Shown: positions 1-8,811, numbered from the stretch's first letter. The stretch is 20,000 nt of DNA from an uncultured virus (IMG/VR IMGVR_UViG_3300033069_001311) (IMGVR_UViG_3300033069_001311), one strand, 5' to 3'. A program made the numbers and translations. Notes: generated by a model not told the origin, from the sequence alone.

Positions 1-1056
1 CGACTGGGAGCCCACAAATGGCATTGGGCTCTGGATTCCGATGTCCGGCTAGTCTTCGACGAGGCGCACCGGTTCAAGCACTCGACTACCCAGAACGGGA
101 AGATCCTTCGGGACGCCCCGCGCCCGGCGATCCTGCTCTCGGCTACGCCCTTCAGCGGGCCCCACGAAGCCTGCGCCATCGGGCACCAGCTTGGGCTCTT
201 CCATTGGAACGACTTTGAATCGTGGGCCGGGCAGCATGGGTGCAAGTACGGGCAGATGGGCGGGCTCGACTTCGTCGGGCTGGTGCGGAAACCTAGGGAC
301 TGGGTCGGCACCCCGCGGCAATGGGCGGAAGCCTGCGAGCTGGAACGCCGGGCAATCCTCGACCGAATCCATCGCCAGATTCATCATACCGGTCGCGGAA
401 TCCGGATTCGGAAAGCGGATCTGGGCGACCTGTTCCCGGCGATTACGCGGGAGACGGTCCTACTTCCAGCCGAGGACGGCGATGCGATAGACGCCGCGTA
501 CTTCGAGGAGTTGCAGCGGCTCAGGAGCGAGGCTCCGAGTGGCGGCGTCGAGTTCCTGCGTGCCCGGCAGATGTCGGAGTTTCTCAAGGTCCCGCATCTG
601 ATCGAGATGACGCGGGACCAGCTGGAGGGCGGCCAGAGCGTCCTGCTCTTCGTCAATTTCCGGGACACCTTCGACCGGCTCGTAGAGGCGTTCCCCGGGT
701 GCGCTCGGATCTACGGCGGGCAGGATCTTGAGGGCGTTCCCCGCGAGGGTGAGCGGCTCCGGTTCCAGCGCGACGAGGCCCGGGTCATGGTCGCCATGAT
801 TCAGGCCGGCGGGATCGCATTATCGGCGCACGATTTGAATGGACGGTTCCCGCGGACCTCGTTCATTCTGCCGGGAGTCTCGGCGGAGCAGGTCATCCAG
901 GCGGATGGCAGAGACCACCGGGCCGGCGGACTGACGCCAGTTTTGCACAAGTACTGCTACTCCGACTGTAGCTTCGAGCGAAAGCTCCGGGCGAAGTTGG
1001 AGACCAAAATAAACAACATCGAGCTTCTGCTCGACGGAGACCTGATACCAGACTGA
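1..1056 (+). CDS. SNF2-like superfamily 2 helicase, 5' end outside the window
   Basis: Frame 1 is open from base 1: LVFDEAHR (motif II, about 49-72), LLSATP (III), VLLFVNF (IV), IQAGGIALS (V), QADGRDHRAG (VI). The track's 256 start is internal. Confidence 0.9.
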   Translation, partial: RLGAHKWHWALDSDVRLVFDEAHRFKHSTTQNGKILRDAPRPAILLSATPFSGPHEACAIGHQLGLFHWNDFESWAGQHGCKYGQMGGLDFVGLVRKPRDWVGTPRQWAEACELERRAILDRIHRQIHHTGRGIRIRKADLGDLFPAITRETVLLPAEDGDAIDAAYFEELQRLRSEAPSGGVEFLRARQMSEFLKVPHLIEMTRDQLEGGQSVLLFVNFRDTFDRLVEAFPGCARIYGGQDLEGVPREGERLRFQRDEARVMVAMIQAGGIALSAHDLNGRFPRTSFILPGVSAEQVIQADGRDHRAGGLTPVLHKYCYSDCSFERKLRAKLETKINNIELLLDGDLIPD

Positions 1057-1066
1057 GGATACCATT

Positions 1067-1435
1067 ATGGGCTGCGACATCCACTGCTACATCGAATACA
1101 AACCCACCGGATCTGACTCTTGGTCGGACTTCGGAGGACGCATCAATCCCGGATGGATGTACGTGTGCGAACCTGTCGGGGAAGGTTGTTGCACGCCATC
1201 CCGGGCGGAAGCGTGGGTCGAACGAGGTTCGTCTCGATACAAGGACGCGGAGAAGATGTTCGTGTCGAATCCCGATTGGCATTCGCACTCGTGGCTGACG
1301 ACTGACGAGTACGCCTCGGTGGTTGAAGGGACCGGAGAACCGGAGTACGAGGCCATTCTCGCCGCGATGCGATCCTTCGAAGAGGGTGGGGCGAAGGCCC
1401 GGATTGTGTTCTGGTTCGACAATTGTCCGCTATGA
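1067..1435 (+). CDS. Conserved phage hypothetical protein (MGCDIH...RIVFWFDN type)
   Basis: GAGGA upstream; MGCDIH start, DWHSHSWLT and RIVFWFDN recall a common phage family; stop overlaps the next ATG. Confidence 0.8.
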   Translation: MGCDIHCYIEYKPTGSDSWSDFGGRINPGWMYVCEPVGEGCCTPSRAEAWVERGSSRYKDAEKMFVSNPDWHSHSWLTTDEYASVVEGTGEPEYEAILAAMRSFEEGGAKARIVFWFDNCPL

Positions 1436-1581
1436 ATACCGAAGTTTTGAAGCTCTTATTCGAGTACATCGACGCCCGGATAGCGGAGTTGTCGCCAGAT
1501 GGCGGCAGTCACGATATGGTTCGACGGATGCAAGCGGAAGACGATCTCCTGTCTATCGTCCCGGAGATCCGCGACCCATGA
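1432..1581 (+). CDS. Hypothetical protein, 49 aa (MNTEVLKLLFEYIDARIAELSP...)
   Basis: Read by hand (below the track cutoff); ATGA overlaps at both ends; amphipathic helix. Confidence 0.75.
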   Translation: MNTEVLKLLFEYIDARIAELSPDGGSHDMVRRMQAEDDLLSIVPEIRDP

Positions 1582-1751
1582 CCTCCCTCCTCAACCGGAA
1601 AGCCGTACGCAATGAAGCCCTTCGGGCGTCCCATGCCCGCGGCTTCACCCGGGTTTCCAAATCCTTCCTCGATAAGATCGAAGCCCACGTCGCGGAGCTG
1701 GTCGCGGCGGAGGTTCACCGGCACCCCAGCATTGGAAAGACATTACGATGA
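1578..1751 (+). CDS. Putative minimal histone-fold DNA-binding protein, 57 aa
   Basis: MTSLLNRKAVRNEALRASHARGFTRVSKSFLDKIEAHVAELVAAEVHRHPSIGKTLR: basic helix 1, RVS loop, long amphipathic helix 2, KTL loop; ATGA overlaps at both ends. Confidence 0.7.
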   Translation: MTSLLNRKAVRNEALRASHARGFTRVSKSFLDKIEAHVAELVAAEVHRHPSIGKTLR

Positions 1752-3127
1752 CCGACGCCTTTACCGCAGCCTCCGGCTGTAAGCTCCTGCCCAACGCCGA
1801 CTGCTCCGTGATGGAGGTCGTTCCAATGGACGCCCCTACCGAAGCCTCGGAGAGGCGGGGCAAGCTCCGTCAGCTCCAAGAGGCCACGAATTGCGGAGCC
1901 CGGGACGGGAAAGCCGCCCTCTCTGAATGCGGGTGGGATGTTTCCCAGGCGACCGAAAAGATTCGGCTCCTCGGCACCACGCCCGTCACCAAGCTCGTTT
2001 CCGGCGCCACCAAGATCACCGACGATCTCCCGGTCTCCTACCCCGGCGAGAGGCGCTCGTCGCCGTCGAAATACAAGTCGATCGAAGTCTCCCCCGCCTA
2101 CGAAGAGGATAAGACCCGACCAGAGCACCCCATGACGGCGCGGGGCAAGGTGATGCACAAGGCCGTCGAGACTGGGGACGACTCCGAGCTGATCGAGGAC
2201 GAATTCGAATGGGTCCAGAAATGTCGGGACGTGCGGGAGAAGATCGTCCCGGCGAATGCGACCGTGAAGCGGGAAATCCGATTCCCGATCATCGGGGCCG
2301 ATTATGGATTCGTCGACGAGCTGGCGCTCATGCCCAGCTATGGAATCGTCATTGATTACAAGTTCGGTCAGAACAAGCAGGAGGACGCGGAGACCAACTC
2401 CCAGGTTCAGGCGTATGCGCTCGGAATCCTGCGGACCTTCCCCTATCTGGCGCGGGTCGACGTGTACCTGCTCTACCCCAAGCTGGACATCGTCGACATG
2501 GCGACCTTCGCCCGCGCCGACGTCCCGCGAATTGCCGCCCGTCTCATGGCGATCAAGAAGGCGCACGATGTGGCGACCCCGGCGACGTGTCGGTACAACG
2601 ATTCCACGTGCATCTATTGTAAGCACCTGGTGAGCAATGGTTCCACCTGCCCGGTCGCCGGGAAGAAACTCCTGCCCATCGCCCAGCGATATGCCGGGAG
2701 CCACGACATGGCGTTCCCGAACCTAGACTTCTCCCTCGTCACGAAGCCCGAGGACTGGGCCCGGCTCCTGGAGGCGGCGCCTGTCTTTGAAGCCGTGGCT
2801 GACTCTATCAAGCGTCACGCTAAGGAGTTCCGGATCGCGACGGGAGAGGAGATCCCGGGGTATGACTTGACGACCGTATCCGGGAAGCGCAGTATCACGA
2901 ACCCGATCCTCGCGCACGAGATTGCGACCACGAGGTACGGGATCACCAATGAAGCTTTCTTGCGAGCCGTGAAGGTCAGTGCCGCTGATCTGCTCGACCT
3001 TGCAAAGGAATCCGCTCCCCGCGGGCAGAAGGGGAAACGGGCCCAAGAGATGGAGGACACGCTCCGCGACGCGGGAGTGCTCTCCGTCGGGTCCGACTAT
3101 CAAAAACTCAGCAAATCGAAATCATAA
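1748..3127 (+). CDS. DUF2800/Cas4-like PD-(D/E)XK exonuclease with an N-terminal EF-Ts/UBA-like domain
   Basis: SSPS, RGKVMHKAVE, YGFVD, IDYKFG, NSQVQAYALG, CIYC...CP; lies upstream of SSB and PolA. Confidence 0.85.
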   Translation: MTDAFTAASGCKLLPNADCSVMEVVPMDAPTEASERRGKLRQLQEATNCGARDGKAALSECGWDVSQATEKIRLLGTTPVTKLVSGATKITDDLPVSYPGERRSSPSKYKSIEVSPAYEEDKTRPEHPMTARGKVMHKAVETGDDSELIEDEFEWVQKCRDVREKIVPANATVKREIRFPIIGADYGFVDELALMPSYGIVIDYKFGQNKQEDAETNSQVQAYALGILRTFPYLARVDVYLLYPKLDIVDMATFARADVPRIAARLMAIKKAHDVATPATCRYNDSTCIYCKHLVSNGSTCPVAGKKLLPIAQRYAGSHDMAFPNLDFSLVTKPEDWARLLEAAPVFEAVADSIKRHAKEFRIATGEEIPGYDLTTVSGKRSITNPILAHEIATTRYGITNEAFLRAVKVSAADLLDLAKESAPRGQKGKRAQEMEDTLRDAGVLSVGSDYQKLSKSKS

Positions 3128-3129
3128 TT

Positions 3130-3858
3130 ATGCCTGTATTGTCATTCGACGGAGTCGGAGCCGCAGCAACCGCCGCCTCCACCGCAGTTGTTCCGGTCGC
3201 CGCGGCGCCGGTTACGAAGTACGCCACCCCGGCGTCCCAGATCGAAGGCGATTTGAGCGGGACGACCGTTCCGATTCCGTACCTCGCCCTCACCCAGAAG
3301 GCCTCTGGCGTGGTGGATGAGCATCCGGAATGGATGGGGAAGTGGTGTTACGATAAGACCACCATCGTCGGCTTGCCCGCCGACCCGAAGCAGTATTCGA
3401 CCGAGCTGACCCGGGGTCTCGGTAAGGACTCCGTGCTCGGGATCGTGACGAAGGTCAAGGTCGGGTATGAAGAGAAGGTGGAGTTCGACTCCGGGATCAT
3501 CCCCGACCGCTGGAGTTCCGCCGCGGAGGCGCGGGCGAGCGGGAAGGAGTACCAGGAGGTCGGCACCATTGACGTGCTGTTGGCCTTCGACGGGGACCAT
3601 GAGCAGATCCGGTTGGTGGGAGGATTCCAATTCCTTCCGGCCCGACTGATCGTGAAGAAGAGCGCCTACCGCAACGTCGCGGGGGCGATCGTCCGGGACT
3701 GCTCGACATGGTTGCACGGCGATACGTGCTCGGGATGGTACGAATTCGCGGTGAATAAGATCACCGGGAAGCAGACGTACTGGAGTCCGGTGGCCAAAGG
3801 TGCCGGAAAGGTGTCGCCGGAACTCCGCGAGGCGATCCGGAACGAGTTCGGGGTCTAA
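3130..3858 (+). CDS. Putative single-stranded DNA-binding/recombination protein
   Basis: 242-aa ORF between nuclease and polymerase; IPYLALTQKAS motif; aromatic beta-rich body; followed by a terminator. Function inferred mainly from position. Confidence 0.55.
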   Translation: MPVLSFDGVGAAATAASTAVVPVAAAPVTKYATPASQIEGDLSGTTVPIPYLALTQKASGVVDEHPEWMGKWCYDKTTIVGLPADPKQYSTELTRGLGKDSVLGIVTKVKVGYEEKVEFDSGIIPDRWSSAAEARASGKEYQEVGTIDVLLAFDGDHEQIRLVGGFQFLPARLIVKKSAYRNVAGAIVRDCSTWLHGDTCSGWYEFAVNKITGKQTYWSPVAKGAGKVSPELREAIRNEFGV

Positions 3859-3870
3859 GGGTTCATGCCG

Positions 3871-3902
3871 CCCGGGGTGGGGTCGCCCCGGGTTTCTCTT
3901 CT
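3871..3902 (+). terminator. Rho-independent terminator
   Basis: CCCGGGGTG-gggt-CGCCCCGGG stem (one G-U pair) followed by TTTCTCTTCT, 12 nt after the stop at 3858. Confidence 0.75.
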
Positions 3903-3986
3903 ATGGGATATGCAACCATCGTCATGATCGGAACTATCGTCTTGATTATCGGGACGATCCTGTACGCCAACCGGAAGAACCTGTGA
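3903..3986 (+). CDS. Single-pass membrane micropeptide, 27 aa (MGYATIVMIGTIVLIIGTILYANRKNL)
   Basis: About 20 hydrophobic residues then an RK tail; its TGA overlaps the polymerase GTG. Confidence 0.6.
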   Translation: MGYATIVMIGTIVLIIGTILYANRKNL

Positions 3987-5812
3987 TAACCGCGAACCCC
4001 GACTCCCCGAGCGGCGCCGTCGCTATCGACTTTGAAACCTCCTACGAGGTCGGTCGGGACATCAAATCCCTCGGCATGGTCCCCTACCTCCGGCACCCGG
4101 AGACGGACGTCTACATGGTCTCGATCTACGGCGAGGGCGTCGAATACGTCGGGCCGCCGGAGACCGCACCTTGGGACCAGATCGCGAACCGCCCGTGGGT
4201 GTCCCACAACATGCAGTTCGATCGGGCGGTCTACGACGAACTCCGGCGTCGGAGGTCGGGATTCTATCCGGCCACTCCAGATGAATGGGACTGCTCCGCG
4301 GATCTGGTCGCCGCCATGCAGTGCAAGCGATCCCTCGCGGACGCCATGTTCATCCTCGAAGGGCACCGGGTCGACAAGACCGTGCGCGACGAGATGAAGG
4401 GGGTCGCTTGGAAGGACCTGGATGACGTTGGTCGGGCTCGGGTGTCCGAATACGCGATTCTGGATGCCAAGTACTGCTCCCACCTGTGGGACAAGTATTC
4501 CTCGAATCAGCCGGAGTTCGAGCGCCAGCTCTCGCGCCACACCGCCCGGATGTGCCACCGGGGCCTTGCCGTCAACGAGGCGAAGGTCTCCTCCGGGATC
4601 GACATCCTCGCCGACCGTCTATTCCAGGTCGAGAAGCTGATCCCGTGGGCCGGCGAGCTGAACGAGAAGGGGAAGGAGATTCCGATCACGTCGAGCAAGG
4701 CGATAGCCAATGAGTGCCGGAAGCTTGGGATCCCGCCCCCGGCATCAACGGACGTGAAGTCCGCCCTATGGGACCGGTGGGAGGAGCAGTACGCGGAACA
4801 GGCGCCCTTCGTAGGCGCCATTCAGAAGTACCGGAAGATCAACCGGGTGCTCGGAGTCCTGAAGTCAATCCGGACTCGGACGGTCGGCGGGATCTGCTAC
4901 TACGAGCTGAAGTACTGCGGGGCGCCCCATACCCGGCGCTGGAGCGGGGGCTATGAGTATGAGTCAAGGTCTGAGTCAAGCTCTCTCAACATCCAGAACC
5001 TCCCGAAGGACGAGGTCGAAGGCGTCGACGTGCGCTCGTGTTTCATCCCGCGCCCCGGGCACCGGTTCGTGGTCTCGGATCTGCGACAGATCGAGGCCCG
5101 GGTGATCCTGTGGATGGCGGGGGAAGAGGGGATCTTGGCCCCACTCCGACTCGGCGCGGATCTGTACGACTCCTACGCCCGCACGGCGATGGGCTACCGG
5201 GACCCGCGACCGCTTGCCGAGGTCGATAAGGGGCTCCGGCAATTGGCGAAGACTCACTGGCTGGGACTTGGGTACGGGATGAGCGCCGGCAAGTTGCAGG
5301 ACACGGCCCGGAAGTACGGGAGCACCATCTCGGCGACGGAGGCAGAGATTGCCGTCAGCACTTTCCGTCGGGGTGTCCCGAGGATCAAGGCGAACATCTG
5401 GGACCCGATCAAGTCGAACCTCTCCCGGTTCGAGGTGGACGGAAAGGTGGAATTTGTGTTGCCTTCCGGTCGGACAATCCGGTATTTCGGAGTCCGGCGC
5501 GACGGCTTTGGGTTCTCCGGCTGTACCGTCCGCGGCGATCCGGAGAAGAACCTGTGGTTCGGCCTTGTTACCGAGAATGTGGTCCAGGGGACGGCGAGGG
5601 ATGTGTTCGGCACCCGGATTCTGGACCTGGAGCAGAGCGGGTTCCCGGTGGCCTTCCACGTTCACGACGAAGCGATCAACGAAGTATCCGAAGAGGACAT
5701 CGAATGCAAGGCAATGGAGATCAACAGGATCATGTCGACAGCTCCGGATTGGGCTGCGGGGCTCCCGGTGTCGAGCGGGACGGATGTCATGGACGCCTAC
5801 TGCAAAAAGTAG
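3983..5812 (+). CDS. Phage family A DNA polymerase with 3'-5' exonuclease domain
   Basis: ExoI AIDFET, ExoII HNMQFD, ExoIII YAILD; NIQNLP; motif A SDLRQIEAR, motif B RQLAKTHWLGLGYG, motif C HVHDE. Start reassigned to GTG 3983 (GTGA overlap). Confidence 0.96.
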   Translation: MITANPDSPSGAVAIDFETSYEVGRDIKSLGMVPYLRHPETDVYMVSIYGEGVEYVGPPETAPWDQIANRPWVSHNMQFDRAVYDELRRRRSGFYPATPDEWDCSADLVAAMQCKRSLADAMFILEGHRVDKTVRDEMKGVAWKDLDDVGRARVSEYAILDAKYCSHLWDKYSSNQPEFERQLSRHTARMCHRGLAVNEAKVSSGIDILADRLFQVEKLIPWAGELNEKGKEIPITSSKAIANECRKLGIPPPASTDVKSALWDRWEEQYAEQAPFVGAIQKYRKINRVLGVLKSIRTRTVGGICYYELKYCGAPHTRRWSGGYEYESRSESSSLNIQNLPKDEVEGVDVRSCFIPRPGHRFVVSDLRQIEARVILWMAGEEGILAPLRLGADLYDSYARTAMGYRDPRPLAEVDKGLRQLAKTHWLGLGYGMSAGKLQDTARKYGSTISATEAEIAVSTFRRGVPRIKANIWDPIKSNLSRFEVDGKVEFVLPSGRTIRYFGVRRDGFGFSGCTVRGDPEKNLWFGLVTENVVQGTARDVFGTRILDLEQSGFPVAFHVHDEAINEVSEEDIECKAMEINRIMSTAPDWAAGLPVSSGTDVMDAYCKK

Positions 5813-6140: not shown

Positions 6141-8239
6141 GACTCTTCTCCCTCCCCAACCTTGCCAGTCACGAAGTCTCCGTCATGGACGTGGAGACGG
6201 CTCCCGTCGTCACGCGCCCGGAGTTCGCTTCCAAGACGGAGTACCGAGCTTGGTGCGGGAAGAAAACGACGGACCACGCGTTCGTGTCGATGATCGAGGG
6301 GCTCACCCCCGGGGTTCGGGTTTCGGCCGCCAATCCCCCGCGCAAATTGCACGGGCTCATCTTGGAGTATGACGCCAAGGCGCCCAAGGTCCCCGACCTT
6401 TCCGACGCCCGGTATCTGCCTGCCTGGAAGATCACGACCTTCAGCGGGAACATGCGCCTCGTCTTCCCCTTCGAGTCGCCGATCAGCGTCGACGATGCGG
6501 ATCTAGCTCGCGAGTTCCAGAAGGTGGCGCACAAGAACCTGAAGGCGAAGCGGCTAGGAGCTGGCTGGGAGCCGGAGGAGTCAGCCAAGGCCGGGCAGTA
6601 TTTCGAGATCGGAACTGAGTGGATCCCGCTGGGGGGCGAACCCCTCGCTGTGGAGTCTCTTTACGGCTGGCTTGCCGAGGCCGCGACGAAGGTCCGGTGG
6701 GACAACAAGGGCACCGTCGTACCGTTCGAGAAGCTGCGAGAGCGAGCCGAGAAGGCGTTCCCCGGTCGGTGGGCCGGCGGATGGGCCGGGTTCCAGCCTG
6801 GGGCTCGGGGTTCCCGGTTCTGGGACCAGAGCGCCGATGCGGAGAGCGTGCTGGTGACCGAGACCGGGTGCGTCTGCTTCACCGGCGACCAAGCCTTCAT
6901 GCCGTGGTCCGCCATCTTTGGCTCCGACTGGGTCCGGGAGCAGCAGGGCGGGGTCATCGGCGAGGCCATCGCGAACCTGTGGTGGGAGGAGGGGACCAGC
7001 AAGTACTGGCGCCGGTACGCGAGCGGGGATCTGGGCGCCATGTGTACGATGGCGGACGTCAAGCTCCACCTCCGGGCGCAGGGGCTCAAGGACATCCCGA
7101 CGAAGGGCGAGGAGTTCACCCCCGTCGAGCAGGCGATCTATGCGTGCCAGATCACGCGCCGGGCCGAGGTCGTGGTCCCGCTCATTTACCGCCCCAACGA
7201 CATCGTGATCCATAACCGGAGGCGGTACTTGAATACCTCCCGGGTACGGCCAACGGCGCCCCTGCCCGACCCCCGGTCGTGGGGCGAGGGGTTCCCGTGG
7301 GTGGCGAAGTACCTCGACCGGCTCTGGGACCGGGAGCAGAAGCTTCGGTACCTAGCCTGGGTCGCCCACTTCTACCAGCAGGCCCTCGCCGGGCGCCCGG
7401 GTACCGGATTGGCGCTCTTCGTAGCCGGCGACGGGAGCATTGGTAAGAACTTCTCGACCAACGCTATCCTCGGGCAGCTCTTCGGCGGGCACGGCGACGC
7501 TTCGAAGTTCGTGACGGGCAAAGACAATTTCATCGGGAATCTGCTGGACTGCCCCATCTGGACCTGCCACGACACGCAGCGGGCGGCCGACAACATGAAT
7601 GGGCAGAACACCTTCACCCAGCAGCTCAAGCGGATCATCGCGGACCGGGAGCTGATCGCTCGGGCGATGTATAAGGAAGGCGTGGATGTCCCCTGGAACG
7701 GCCGGATCGTGGTCACCCTGAATACCGACCCCGAGAGTCTAAGGATGCTTCCGGATTTGGAGCAGACGATTCTGAACAAGGTCCTGCTGCTCCGGGCGAA
7801 CGACCCCCGGATCGGAGACTTCCCTTCCGACGAGGAGGTTCTCGCGGAACTCCCGGCCTTCGGGTCATTCCTTCGCGACTACGAGATCCCGGCGGAGATT
7901 CGGGAACCCCGGTTCGGGATTCTGGCTTGGCACCACCCGGACCTGCTCGACGCTGCCCACGCCGAGAGCCCGACGACGGGTGCGCTCGAAGTGCTGTCGA
8001 TCTGGCGGAAGGAGTACTTCAACGGGGTCGCGGCTCCGGATGCGACCTCCTGGATCGGGACGGCGACCGAACTTCTCCAGCTCATGCACCGGCTAGACGC
8101 GACGGAAGCGGTTGTCCGCGGGCAGTTCCGGAATGGCACCAGCCTCGGAAGATCGCTGAATAAGCTTGTCGACCAGAAGGTTTCTTGGATACACAAGCAC
8201 CACGGGGGGCGGAGAACGTACATGTTGGAGCGAGAATAG
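6137..8239 (+). CDS. Primase-helicase: AEP-like N-terminal domain plus DUF5906/SF3-like P-loop NTPase
   Basis: GLILEYD and TTFSGNMRLVF in the N-terminal part; Walker A GDGSIGKN, Walker B-like IWTCHD, sensor VVTLN; winged-helix-like tail WIGTATELL...LGRSL. Confidence 0.82.
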   Translation: MRLFSLPNLASHEVSVMDVETAPVVTRPEFASKTEYRAWCGKKTTDHAFVSMIEGLTPGVRVSAANPPRKLHGLILEYDAKAPKVPDLSDARYLPAWKITTFSGNMRLVFPFESPISVDDADLAREFQKVAHKNLKAKRLGAGWEPEESAKAGQYFEIGTEWIPLGGEPLAVESLYGWLAEAATKVRWDNKGTVVPFEKLRERAEKAFPGRWAGGWAGFQPGARGSRFWDQSADAESVLVTETGCVCFTGDQAFMPWSAIFGSDWVREQQGGVIGEAIANLWWEEGTSKYWRRYASGDLGAMCTMADVKLHLRAQGLKDIPTKGEEFTPVEQAIYACQITRRAEVVVPLIYRPNDIVIHNRRRYLNTSRVRPTAPLPDPRSWGEGFPWVAKYLDRLWDREQKLRYLAWVAHFYQQALAGRPGTGLALFVAGDGSIGKNFSTNAILGQLFGGHGDASKFVTGKDNFIGNLLDCPIWTCHDTQRAADNMNGQNTFTQQLKRIIADRELIARAMYKEGVDVPWNGRIVVTLNTDPESLRMLPDLEQTILNKVLLLRANDPRIGDFPSDEEVLAELPAFGSFLRDYEIPAEIREPRFGILAWHHPDLLDAAHAESPTTGALEVLSIWRKEYFNGVAAPDATSWIGTATELLQLMHRLDATEAVVRGQFRNGTSLGRSLNKLVDQKVSWIHKHHGGRRTYMLERE

Positions 8240-8246
8240 GAAGACC

Positions 8247-8369
8247 ATGAAACTAGCAACCATCGAAACCGTAGTTGAAGTGCGACCCCACCCCAACGCC
8301 GACCGCCTTGAATTGGCGACGGTGCTGGGATGGCAAACCATCATCCGGAAGGGCGAGTTCGCAGCCGGC
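8247..8369 (+). pseudogene. 5' remnant of an RNA ligase (DRB0094-family-like N-terminus)
   Basis: MKLATIETVVEVRPHPNADRLELATVLGWQTIIRKGEFAAG matches the family's N-terminal OB-like segment; the frame then turns into non-protein-like sequence with no ligase motifs. Confidence 0.75.
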
Positions 8370-8371
8370 GG

Positions 8372-8563
8372 TCGTTCGCCGAAGCCGAGGATCTGTACCG
8401 CCAACTGGCGAGCGTGTTCCGAGGAGCGCCGCAGTATGACTGGCCTTGGTGCCCTCCGGCGGTCACGTACGGGCCGCTTCCGCCGCCCGATTGGAGCTAC
8501 CCTCTCCCTCCGCCAACTATCTGCGGCACCGGGAACCCCGTACCTAAATACTACACGTCATGA
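8372..8563 (+). pseudogene. 3' remnant of a Pro-rich phage hypothetical gene
   Basis: RSFAEAEDLYRQLASVF...WPWCPP...YYTS* is protein-like and ends in an ATGA overlap, but has no start of its own downstream of the ligase remnant. Confidence 0.5.
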
Positions 8564-8811
8564 CCCCAGCCGAAATCAGGGAAGCTAAGATCGACGAAAT
8601 CCGGAAATCCGCTGCCCGAAGAGCCGCGATTTGGCGGACGCTGGACGTCGACCCCGCCTCGGAAGTGATTCAAGACGTCGCCAAATGCGACCGGTGCGGT
8701 GAATCCCCGGCACTGCACCTGAGTCAGGACACCCTATGCCCGAGGTGCCAAACCGAAGCCGACGAGTACTGGCGGGAACGGTGGGATGAATACTATTCGA
8801 ATTGCCTATGA
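8560..8811 (+). CDS. Hypothetical Zn-finger protein
   Basis: CDRC...CPRC; ATGA overlaps at both ends. Confidence 0.8.
   Translation: MTPAEIREAKIDEIRKSAARRAAIWRTLDVDPASEVIQDVAKCDRCGESPALHLSQDTLCPRCQTEADEYWRERWDEYYSNCL

Follow-up and report, generated by a model that had tools for sequence, protein, structure and literature searches.

The locus described here raises the question of what a domain of a translation elongation factor could be doing at the N-terminus of a phage DNA nuclease. It lies within a stretch of 20,000 nucleotides from an uncultured virus (IMG/VR IMGVR_UViG_3300033069_001311), which is referred to at its full length as the window, and comprises a gene for a 459-residue nuclease of the DUF2800/Cas4-like kind. 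An earlier note on this DNA had proposed that positions 1862-1975 encode the N-terminal (UBA-like) domain of EF-Ts, here called TS-N, captured by the nuclease and perhaps tethering it to EF-Tu or to some other partner. We find that the fusion is real, that it appears to be undescribed, and that it joins known parts in a new combination. The domain is, moreover, an optional cassette that near-identical nucleases lack, and its most probable role, in our estimation, is that of a docking module on a flexible tether. The gene is laid out as follows.

1748..3127, + strand: nuclease gene (459 amino acids) with an N-terminal accessory tail, from the open reading frame (ORF) call and full-length relatives
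1748..1825, + strand: N-terminal leader, residues 1-26, conserved and predicted as a beta-hairpin (AlphaFold2 (AF2) strands 11-15 and 22-26; block mean predicted local distance difference test (pLDDT) 59-69)
1826..1993, + strand: variable cassette region, approximately residues 27-82, from the alignment with relatives
1841..1975, + strand: TS-N three-helix domain (EF-Ts N-terminal, UBA-like), residues 32-76, from AF2, profiles and Foldseek
1976..2056, + strand: flexible linker from the domain to the nuclease core, approximately residues 77-103, with AF2 pLDDT below 50 for residues 77-93 and a length that differs among relatives
2057..3124, + strand: DUF2800/Cas4-like PD-(D/E)XK core, in which four cysteines are invariant and the C-terminal part is helical, from Pfam, phrog_69 and Foldseek

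The coordinates in the earlier note are exact and the residues are as it quoted them: positions 1862-1975 correspond to residues 39 (K) to 76 (G) of the 459-residue ORF, and a protein identical to this ORF, recorded from a 76-kb contig, is present in the protein collection (P0196). Residues 1-26 are conserved in relatives both with and without the TS-N domain, and the start codon of the nuclease (ATG at 1748) overlaps the stop codon of the preceding ORF as ATGA. Because of this conserved leader and the ATGA coupling, we place the start at 1748 and take the segment to be translated, a start codon downstream of the TS-N segment being rejected on the same grounds. The G+C content at third codon positions is 0.72-0.88 across the region of the segment. 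A scan of positions 1000-3300 detected nothing that resembles a promoter; the single terminator-like site, which lies on the minus strand, does not exceed expectation. The leader (1748-1825), which has two cysteines and ends in a Met-Glu-Val-Val-type motif, is common to many DUF2800 relatives; its end is duplicated in the relative P0003, and the leader may itself be a second docking element.

The identity of the domain was examined initially at the level of sequence. When residues 1-101 were compared by phmmer with 177,635 PDB sequences, six matches were obtained at E<=10, all of them EF-Ts. The six alignments are ungapped and run from EF-Ts residues 7-9 through 49-57, the best being to the T. 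thermophilus protein (1aip_C, E=0.0021). The sole NCBIfam match of the window N-terminus is TIGR00116 (tsf), at profile positions 9-51 and E=0.0085. A profile (A2) made from the alignment of three domain copies, those of the window protein, P0002 and P0003, matches M. tuberculosis EF-Ts (7vmx_A) at E=1e-6 and E. coli EF-Ts (1efu_B) at 2.2e-5 in the PDB, with five EF-Ts sequences within 1e-6 to 1.4e-4. The best match of this profile outside EF-Ts is 1wj7 (E=0.0043), and UBA domains, with E-values of 0.004-0.9, stand behind five of the six EF-Ts sequences. Positions 9-46/51 of TIGR00116 are matched by 3/3 copies (best E=5.3e-5); the scores are far below the 104-bit whole-protein cut-off, as expected for a single domain. 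Sixteen columns are invariant in the three copies, nine of them in the helix1-turn-helix2 hairpin, and an invariant signature (Q-L-Q, T-x-C-G) is specific to the phage copies.

A search of 1.84 billion representative sequences with the A2 profile retrieved 200 proteins at E<=1e-3, and Pfam was run on 11 of the 150 listed proteins. The domain starts within the first 15 residues, as it does in EF-Ts, in 112 of 173 aligned domain rows (phage copies excluded), and the top-scoring long matches contain two domain copies each and are read as EF-Ts polyproteins. For comparison, the genuine EF-Ts of a Terrimicrobiaceae metagenome-assembled genome (MAG) scores 1.5e-6 with the same profile. Matches to families of the Pfam UBA clan all lie below their cut-offs (UBA_4, 16.8 bits against 21.8; UBA_8, 13.1 against 26; GIP1_N, 16.7 against 26.4), as do those of genuine EF-Ts N-domains. 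Three other identities were considered and set aside: a eukaryote-type ubiquitin-binding UBA domain (PF00627 and relatives), given these sub-threshold scores and the position of PDB UBA domains behind EF-Ts; a whole EF-Ts, given that there is no PF00889 match and that TIGR00116 is matched at positions 9-51 only, with 12-16 bits; and the C-terminal domain (CTD) of L7/L12, given that the window domain has no PF00542 match at E<=10.

Predicted structures were compared in the same way. In the AF2 model of the whole protein the domain consists of helices at residues 32-47, 51-60 and 65-75 (block mean pLDDT 80-90), and a model of the domain alone also has three helices (pLDDT 85). The top Foldseek matches of the domain are EF-Ts N-domains (4pc3_C, 4pc6_C, 7vmx_A, 1efu_B), with a Foldseek probability of 1.00, a root-mean-square deviation of 0.8-1.2 Å over 36-37 columns, and 32-36% identity. 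Overall, the EF-Ts matches show 32-40% identity over 34-38 columns, and other UBA domains, including those of NAC, FAF1 and TDP2, match the shape at 14-21% identity. All of the Foldseek E-values for the domain model exceed 0.1, as expected for a query of 45 residues. With EF-Ts matched by profiles and predicted fold alike, we consider it highly likely that this is a genuine TS-N-type domain, homologous to the N-terminal domain of EF-Ts.

The nuclease half is an ordinary member of a known family, a phage recombination/replication exonuclease resembling Cas4 and AdnA, and the assignment of the core as DUF2800/Cas4-like in the earlier note is borne out by three family matches: PF10926 (DUF2800) at residues 181-394 (E=2.3e-14, 53.8 bits against a cut-off of 21), PF12705 (PDDEXK_1) at E=3e-4, and the phrog_69 'exonuclease' family at residues 131-405 (E=4.2e-22). 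Residues D190, D203, K205, Y223, C159, C288, C291 and C301 are invariant across the 25-member family alignment, and include the catalytic D...D-x-K motif (D190, D203, K205) and Y223, which we take to belong to a Q-x-x-x-Y-type motif. One cysteine lies ahead of the core (C159) and three after it (C288, C291, C301), presumably the Cas4/AddB pattern for an Fe-S cluster, and the family is probably Fe-S-bearing. The full-length AF2 model has a mean pLDDT of 82.7 and a predicted template-modelling (pTM) score of 0.55; its top Foldseek match is the AdnA nuclease domain (6ppu_A, E=3.3e-5), Cas4 (8d3l_I), MGME1 and RecE are among the other matches, and 16 matches have E<=0.001. In distant relatives of 733-804 amino acids (P0020, P0028-P0032) the DUF2800 nuclease is fused to a helicase C-terminal domain (PF00271), unlike the window, where helicase and nuclease are separate genes.

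The earlier note had asked whether homologous nucleases carry the extension; some do, and most do not. Among 47 nuclease relatives (33 cluster representatives and 14 cluster members) examined with the A2 profile, eight have the TS-N domain, one of them as a partial copy, and all eight belong to a sub-clade at least 64% identical to the window protein, within which even near-identical proteins go without it. In the cluster of P0002, whose members are at least 90% identical, 6/12 proteins have 452-459 amino acids and carry the domain and 6/12 have 414-415 and do not. The cluster to which the window protein itself belongs is also mixed: the domain is present in the window protein, and a short stretch of unrelated sequence takes its place in P0001 and P0197 (90-91% identical). 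P0003, similarly, carries the domain, which is missing from the closely related P0004. In a sister clade the difference between a locus with the domain (L017) and two without it (L019, L020) is a clean in-frame indel of 132 bp, the flanks of L017 and L019 being nearly identical at the DNA level. Its absence from near-identical relatives makes the domain an optional cassette and not a feature of the family. An assembly artefact is ruled out, as both forms recur in several independent assemblies. The dN/dS ratio (nonsynonymous to synonymous substitution) between the three lineages is 0.19-0.23 for the domain and 0.16-0.20 for the core, values that are rough in that synonymous sites are saturated (proportion of synonymous differences 0.63-0.72) and the domain offers just 37 codons; where the cassette is present, it looks to be under purifying selection.

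Three further observations concern the same region. One member of the P0002 cluster (P0194, 452 amino acids) lacks seven residues at the start of cassette helix 1, a difference that stems either from a partial deletion or from the gene call or assembly. A second TS-N copy was found neither in the window nor in L019, a 6.2-kb locus without the cassette. The differing insertion of P0009 is no significant copy of the domain (E=0.77).

The disordered N-terminal tail of the nuclease carries an optional cassette of 44-56 residues. On the reading that we prefer, this cassette would dock another protein by way of its tether and would not be needed for catalysis. The most likely partner would be host EF-Tu, bound at the helix D region of its G domain, or another translational GTPase, engaged through the helix1-turn-helix2 hairpin in the manner of EF-Ts and L7/L12; the nuclease would thereby use the very abundant EF-Tu as scaffold or cofactor, sit parked on it, or shield it. 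That the cassette is a dispensable, flexibly tethered docking module we regard as likely. The full statement, in which EF-Tu is the likeliest partner of the module, is a tentative proposal, and we would put our confidence in it at somewhat less than even. A broader idea, that TS-N cassettes are a mobile EF-Tu-docking module which phages graft onto unrelated proteins, this nuclease included, and which seizes EF-Tu, scaffolds on it or shields it, seems to us quite unlikely; were it true, the presence/absence polymorphism would reflect an arms race and not neutrality.

Support for docking on EF-Tu is provided by the contact residues. In M. tuberculosis EF-Ts, according to the available part of PMC9529903, K24 in helix 2 forms a salt bridge with EF-Tu D144/D145, and R13 in helix 1 bonds with P114 and E155. 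The helix1-turn-helix2 hairpin is described as the EF-Tu-binding element common to EF-Ts and L7/12 (PMC4739770, excerpt). In the profile alignment, the lysine equivalent to K24 is invariant in the phage copies, and because this lysine is kept and the hairpin is rich in invariant positions we infer a docking module that would act on EF-Tu or a related GTPase. Several points nevertheless weigh against this proposal. The residue equivalent to R13 is Gln in 4/4 aligned phage copies, although the arginine is approximately 90% conserved in EF-Ts N-domains. The Met-Met pair of helix 2 is replaced by Ala-Arg, Leu-His, Leu-Gly or Ser-Gln. It is the core of EF-Ts that makes most of the interface with EF-Tu, and the affinity of an isolated TS-N domain may be low; UBA-like bundles, moreover, have many different partners. 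Finally, the cassette is dispensable for the basic job of the enzyme, because near-identical nucleases go without it, and the dN/dS values are no better than rough for the reasons given above.

If the proposal is correct, an EF-Tu-gripping domain on a DNA nuclease, which can be dropped without harm to the enzyme, would make it possible to test in what ways DNA phages exploit EF-Tu or protect it. It would also assign a function to a small domain that, outside EF-Ts, current family libraries hardly recognise. Should EF-Tu not be the partner, the locus still provides a case of domain-level presence/absence variation within a near-identical phage gene, and points to the N-terminal tail of DUF2800 nucleases as a modular interaction platform.

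Among the alternatives, the one that survives best keeps the docking module and changes its partner: the EF-Ts fold would serve as a scaffold for binding a replication or recombination protein (helicase, polymerase, primase or the 242-residue neighbour described below) or some other host protein. We judge this to be possible although somewhat unlikely. The Arg-to-Gln change in all four copies and the loss of the Met-Met pair suggest an altered surface, the phage copies have a signature of their own, UBA-like folds bind many ligands, as the presence of NAC, FAF1 and TDP2 UBA domains among the Foldseek matches illustrates, and the gene stands within a tightly coupled replication operon. Similarity to EF-Ts is, however, high for so small a domain (32-40% identity; profile E=1e-6 to 2.2e-5) and reaches loop and helix-3 positions; no candidate partner was identified, and within the short flanks at hand the cassette did not co-vary with any neighbouring gene.

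A second alternative, which we hold to be decidedly improbable, is that the cassette has no function of its own and is a mere passenger: a fragment of host tsf, or of the TS-N gene of some other phage, would have entered the tolerant disordered tail by in-frame recombination and would now be on its way out again. The occurrence of both forms in each of three sub-clades of near-identical nucleases would be expected of such a passenger, as would the partial deletion of helix 1 in P0194 and the restriction of the fusion to three 90% clusters. On the other hand, dN/dS is near 0.2 even though the copies differ at half of their residues, 16 columns are invariant, the fold is predicted with confidence, and intact copies come from several independent assemblies. 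A role within the protein itself, with the domain folding back onto its own nuclease to serve as a lid, an autoinhibitor or an aid to solubility, is more doubtful still. The long flexible linker would permit folding back, and control of activity could be useful because DUF2800 nucleases can be toxic or sensed by defence, B14T being reported in the available part of its preprint to trigger retron IX (bioRxiv 10.64898/2026.07.14.737667); yet the pTM of the model is only 0.55, the linker is predicted to be disordered, and the core is unchanged in relatives that lack the cassette. Extremely improbable, lastly, is the view that a short helical segment resembles EF-Ts by chance or is not translated: although the single-sequence E-values are marginal (0.0021, 0.0085), the UBA-clan scores are below Pfam cut-offs and the Foldseek E-values all exceed 0.1, the three-sequence profile reaches E=1e-6 with top matches to one family and in register, genuine EF-Ts N-domains also miss the Pfam cut-offs, TIGR00116 in 3/3 copies, the AF2 domain model and Foldseek all contradict chance, and the conserved leader with its ATGA coupling puts the start at 1748. 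The docking module, with EF-Tu as the partner that we would name first, remains our preferred reading of the cassette.

As part of establishing how widely such domains occur, we searched protein and genome collections for the fusion and for TS-N domains in other settings. Word-based protein searches limit the nuclease fusion to three 90% clusters; those for shorter proteins returned none, and those for longer proteins only P0002 and P0003. Searching IMG/VR with the whole protein gave no match, and searching it with a further alignment (A1) gave eight distant loci, each matched from approximately residue 96 onwards and so without the domain. With the A2 profile, IMG/VR yielded a 76-residue ORF at approximately 3956-4186 (+ strand) in three loci (L010-L012; 24-residue match, 6.2e-5), which was rejected as it lies antisense inside a 270-residue phage ORF. 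A tblastn comparison of the domain with 50,697 phage records gave no match at E<=10; with a genuine EF-Ts N-domain as query, 12 of the same records were matched, three annotated as tsf/EF-Ts, seven without annotation and two with no feature at the place matched. Among the proteins retrieved by A2 are small ones that are not EF-Ts and have a TS-N-like domain at the C-terminus (P0085, P0117, P0150, P0109 and P0091), and no IMG/VR context was found for P0117 or P0085. Also retrieved by A2 were P0056 (165 amino acids), with three L7/L12-CTD-like repeats, and again P0117 (114 amino acids), which has a PF00542 match; their retrieval illustrates the alpha-hairpin common to EF-Ts and L7/L12. In BFVD the domain model matches, at rank 9 and 29% identity, a 59-residue 'Elongation factor Ts-like protein' of Sinorhizobium phage phiN3 (UniProt A0A0F6WCQ0), an entry which implies that stand-alone phage copies exist in public annotation. 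The earlier note knew of no such fusion, and searches of open full texts, the coverage of which leaves out subscription journals, likewise turned up no publication in which a TS-N or EF-Ts-like domain is fused to a phage protein.

The genome collection contains one relative of the nuclease, in the Terrimicrobiaceae MAG, where EF-Ts is present and no EF-Tu is found above the cut-off. Of 401 genomes of the same phylum, 14 contain nuclease relatives, all at 26-36% identity. Two distant relatives from one genome (G201:C34:20297-21430 and G201:C54:26520-27632) read through three and two in-frame TGA codons, respectively, and may be broken genes or reflect TGA recoding in that element. Contig C1 of G204 carries four separate distant copies of the nuclease at 30-31% identity, which suggests several related prophages.

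The window as a whole is a phage DNA-replication module in which every gene lies on the + strand. In addition to the genes listed below it encodes a family-A DNA polymerase, a DUF5906 primase-like protein, a metallophosphoesterase, a Holliday-junction resolvase, a deoxynucleoside monophosphate kinase and a C5 DNA methyltransferase, and no tRNA genes were found in it.

1-1056, + strand: helicase fragment (phrog_62)
3130-3858, + strand: ORF of 242 amino acids, which begins three bases past the nuclease stop
8166-8588: ORF of 140 amino acids, which matches only the first ~40 positions of an RNA-ligase-type OB-fold family (PF21189, phrog_968)

Upstream of the nuclease, three small genes, which end at 1435, 1581 and 1751, are joined to one another and to the nuclease by ATGA start/stop overlaps at 1432, 1578 and 1748, and these consecutive overlaps suggest that the small genes and the nuclease are translationally coupled. 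The 242-residue ORF has no Pfam, PHROGs or NCBIfam match; the gene at this place in such modules often encodes a protein for ssDNA binding or for annealing. On its longest reading the polymerase ORF (3800-5812) begins before the 242-residue ORF has ended, and the polymerase probably starts further downstream. The 140-residue ORF overlaps the end of the primase-like gene and may be a fragment or a small domain protein.

How, then, does this nuclease compare with systems that are already known? With regard to its catalytic half, the closest counterparts are B14T, AdnA (6PPU) and Cas4, with which the window protein shares PF10926, the D...D-x-K motif and the four cysteines. B14T (Bas14_0045, from Escherichia phage Bas14) is a DUF2800 protein reported, in the available part of the preprint, to be an active, AdnA-like nuclease that triggers retron type IX and is inactivated in the D177A/K179A mutant (bioRxiv 10.64898/2026.07.14.737667). 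The same text compares B14T with 6PPU, which is also the top Foldseek match of the window nuclease. As described there, B14T consists of a DUF2800 domain and a C-terminal disordered region and has no N-terminal TS-N domain, unlike the window protein.

EF-Tu, which is among the most abundant proteins of bacteria, has figured in phage-host conflict before: as a subunit of Q-beta replicase, as a target of the Lit protease and of type IV Thoeris, and as a scaffold for Avs7 (PMC12803255, excerpt), and the CdiA-CT EC869 tRNase needs Tu/Ts and GTP (PMC9071432, excerpt). Q-beta replicase, with its EF-Tu and EF-Ts subunits, CdiA-CT EC869 and Avs7 are precedents for a mobile-element or defence enzyme that employs abundant EF-Tu as a subunit or scaffold. 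Such recruiters bind through surfaces of their own, as Avs7 does to EF-Tu domains II and III, or through whole host EF-Ts, and in the available portions of these sources none is described with a built-in TS-N domain.

As for the domain itself, the EF-Ts N-domain (E. coli EF-Ts residues 1-54 in 1EFU; 7VMX; 1AIP) is, like that of the window, a three-helix bundle of approximately 40 residues, and the L, T, G, K-x-A-L, E, G-D, R and G positions are kept without gaps. Unlike it, the window domain is fused to a nuclease, lacks the core and dimerisation domains, and has a cysteine in the turn; nucleotide exchange is not possible without the EF-Ts core. Compared with the L7/L12 CTD, the window domain has a third helix and the UBA arrangement. 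The phiN3 protein comes close in another respect, as it too is an isolated, phage-encoded TS-N-type domain without an EF-Ts core; that protein, however, stands alone at 59 residues, whereas the copy in the window is an N-terminal cassette on a nuclease.

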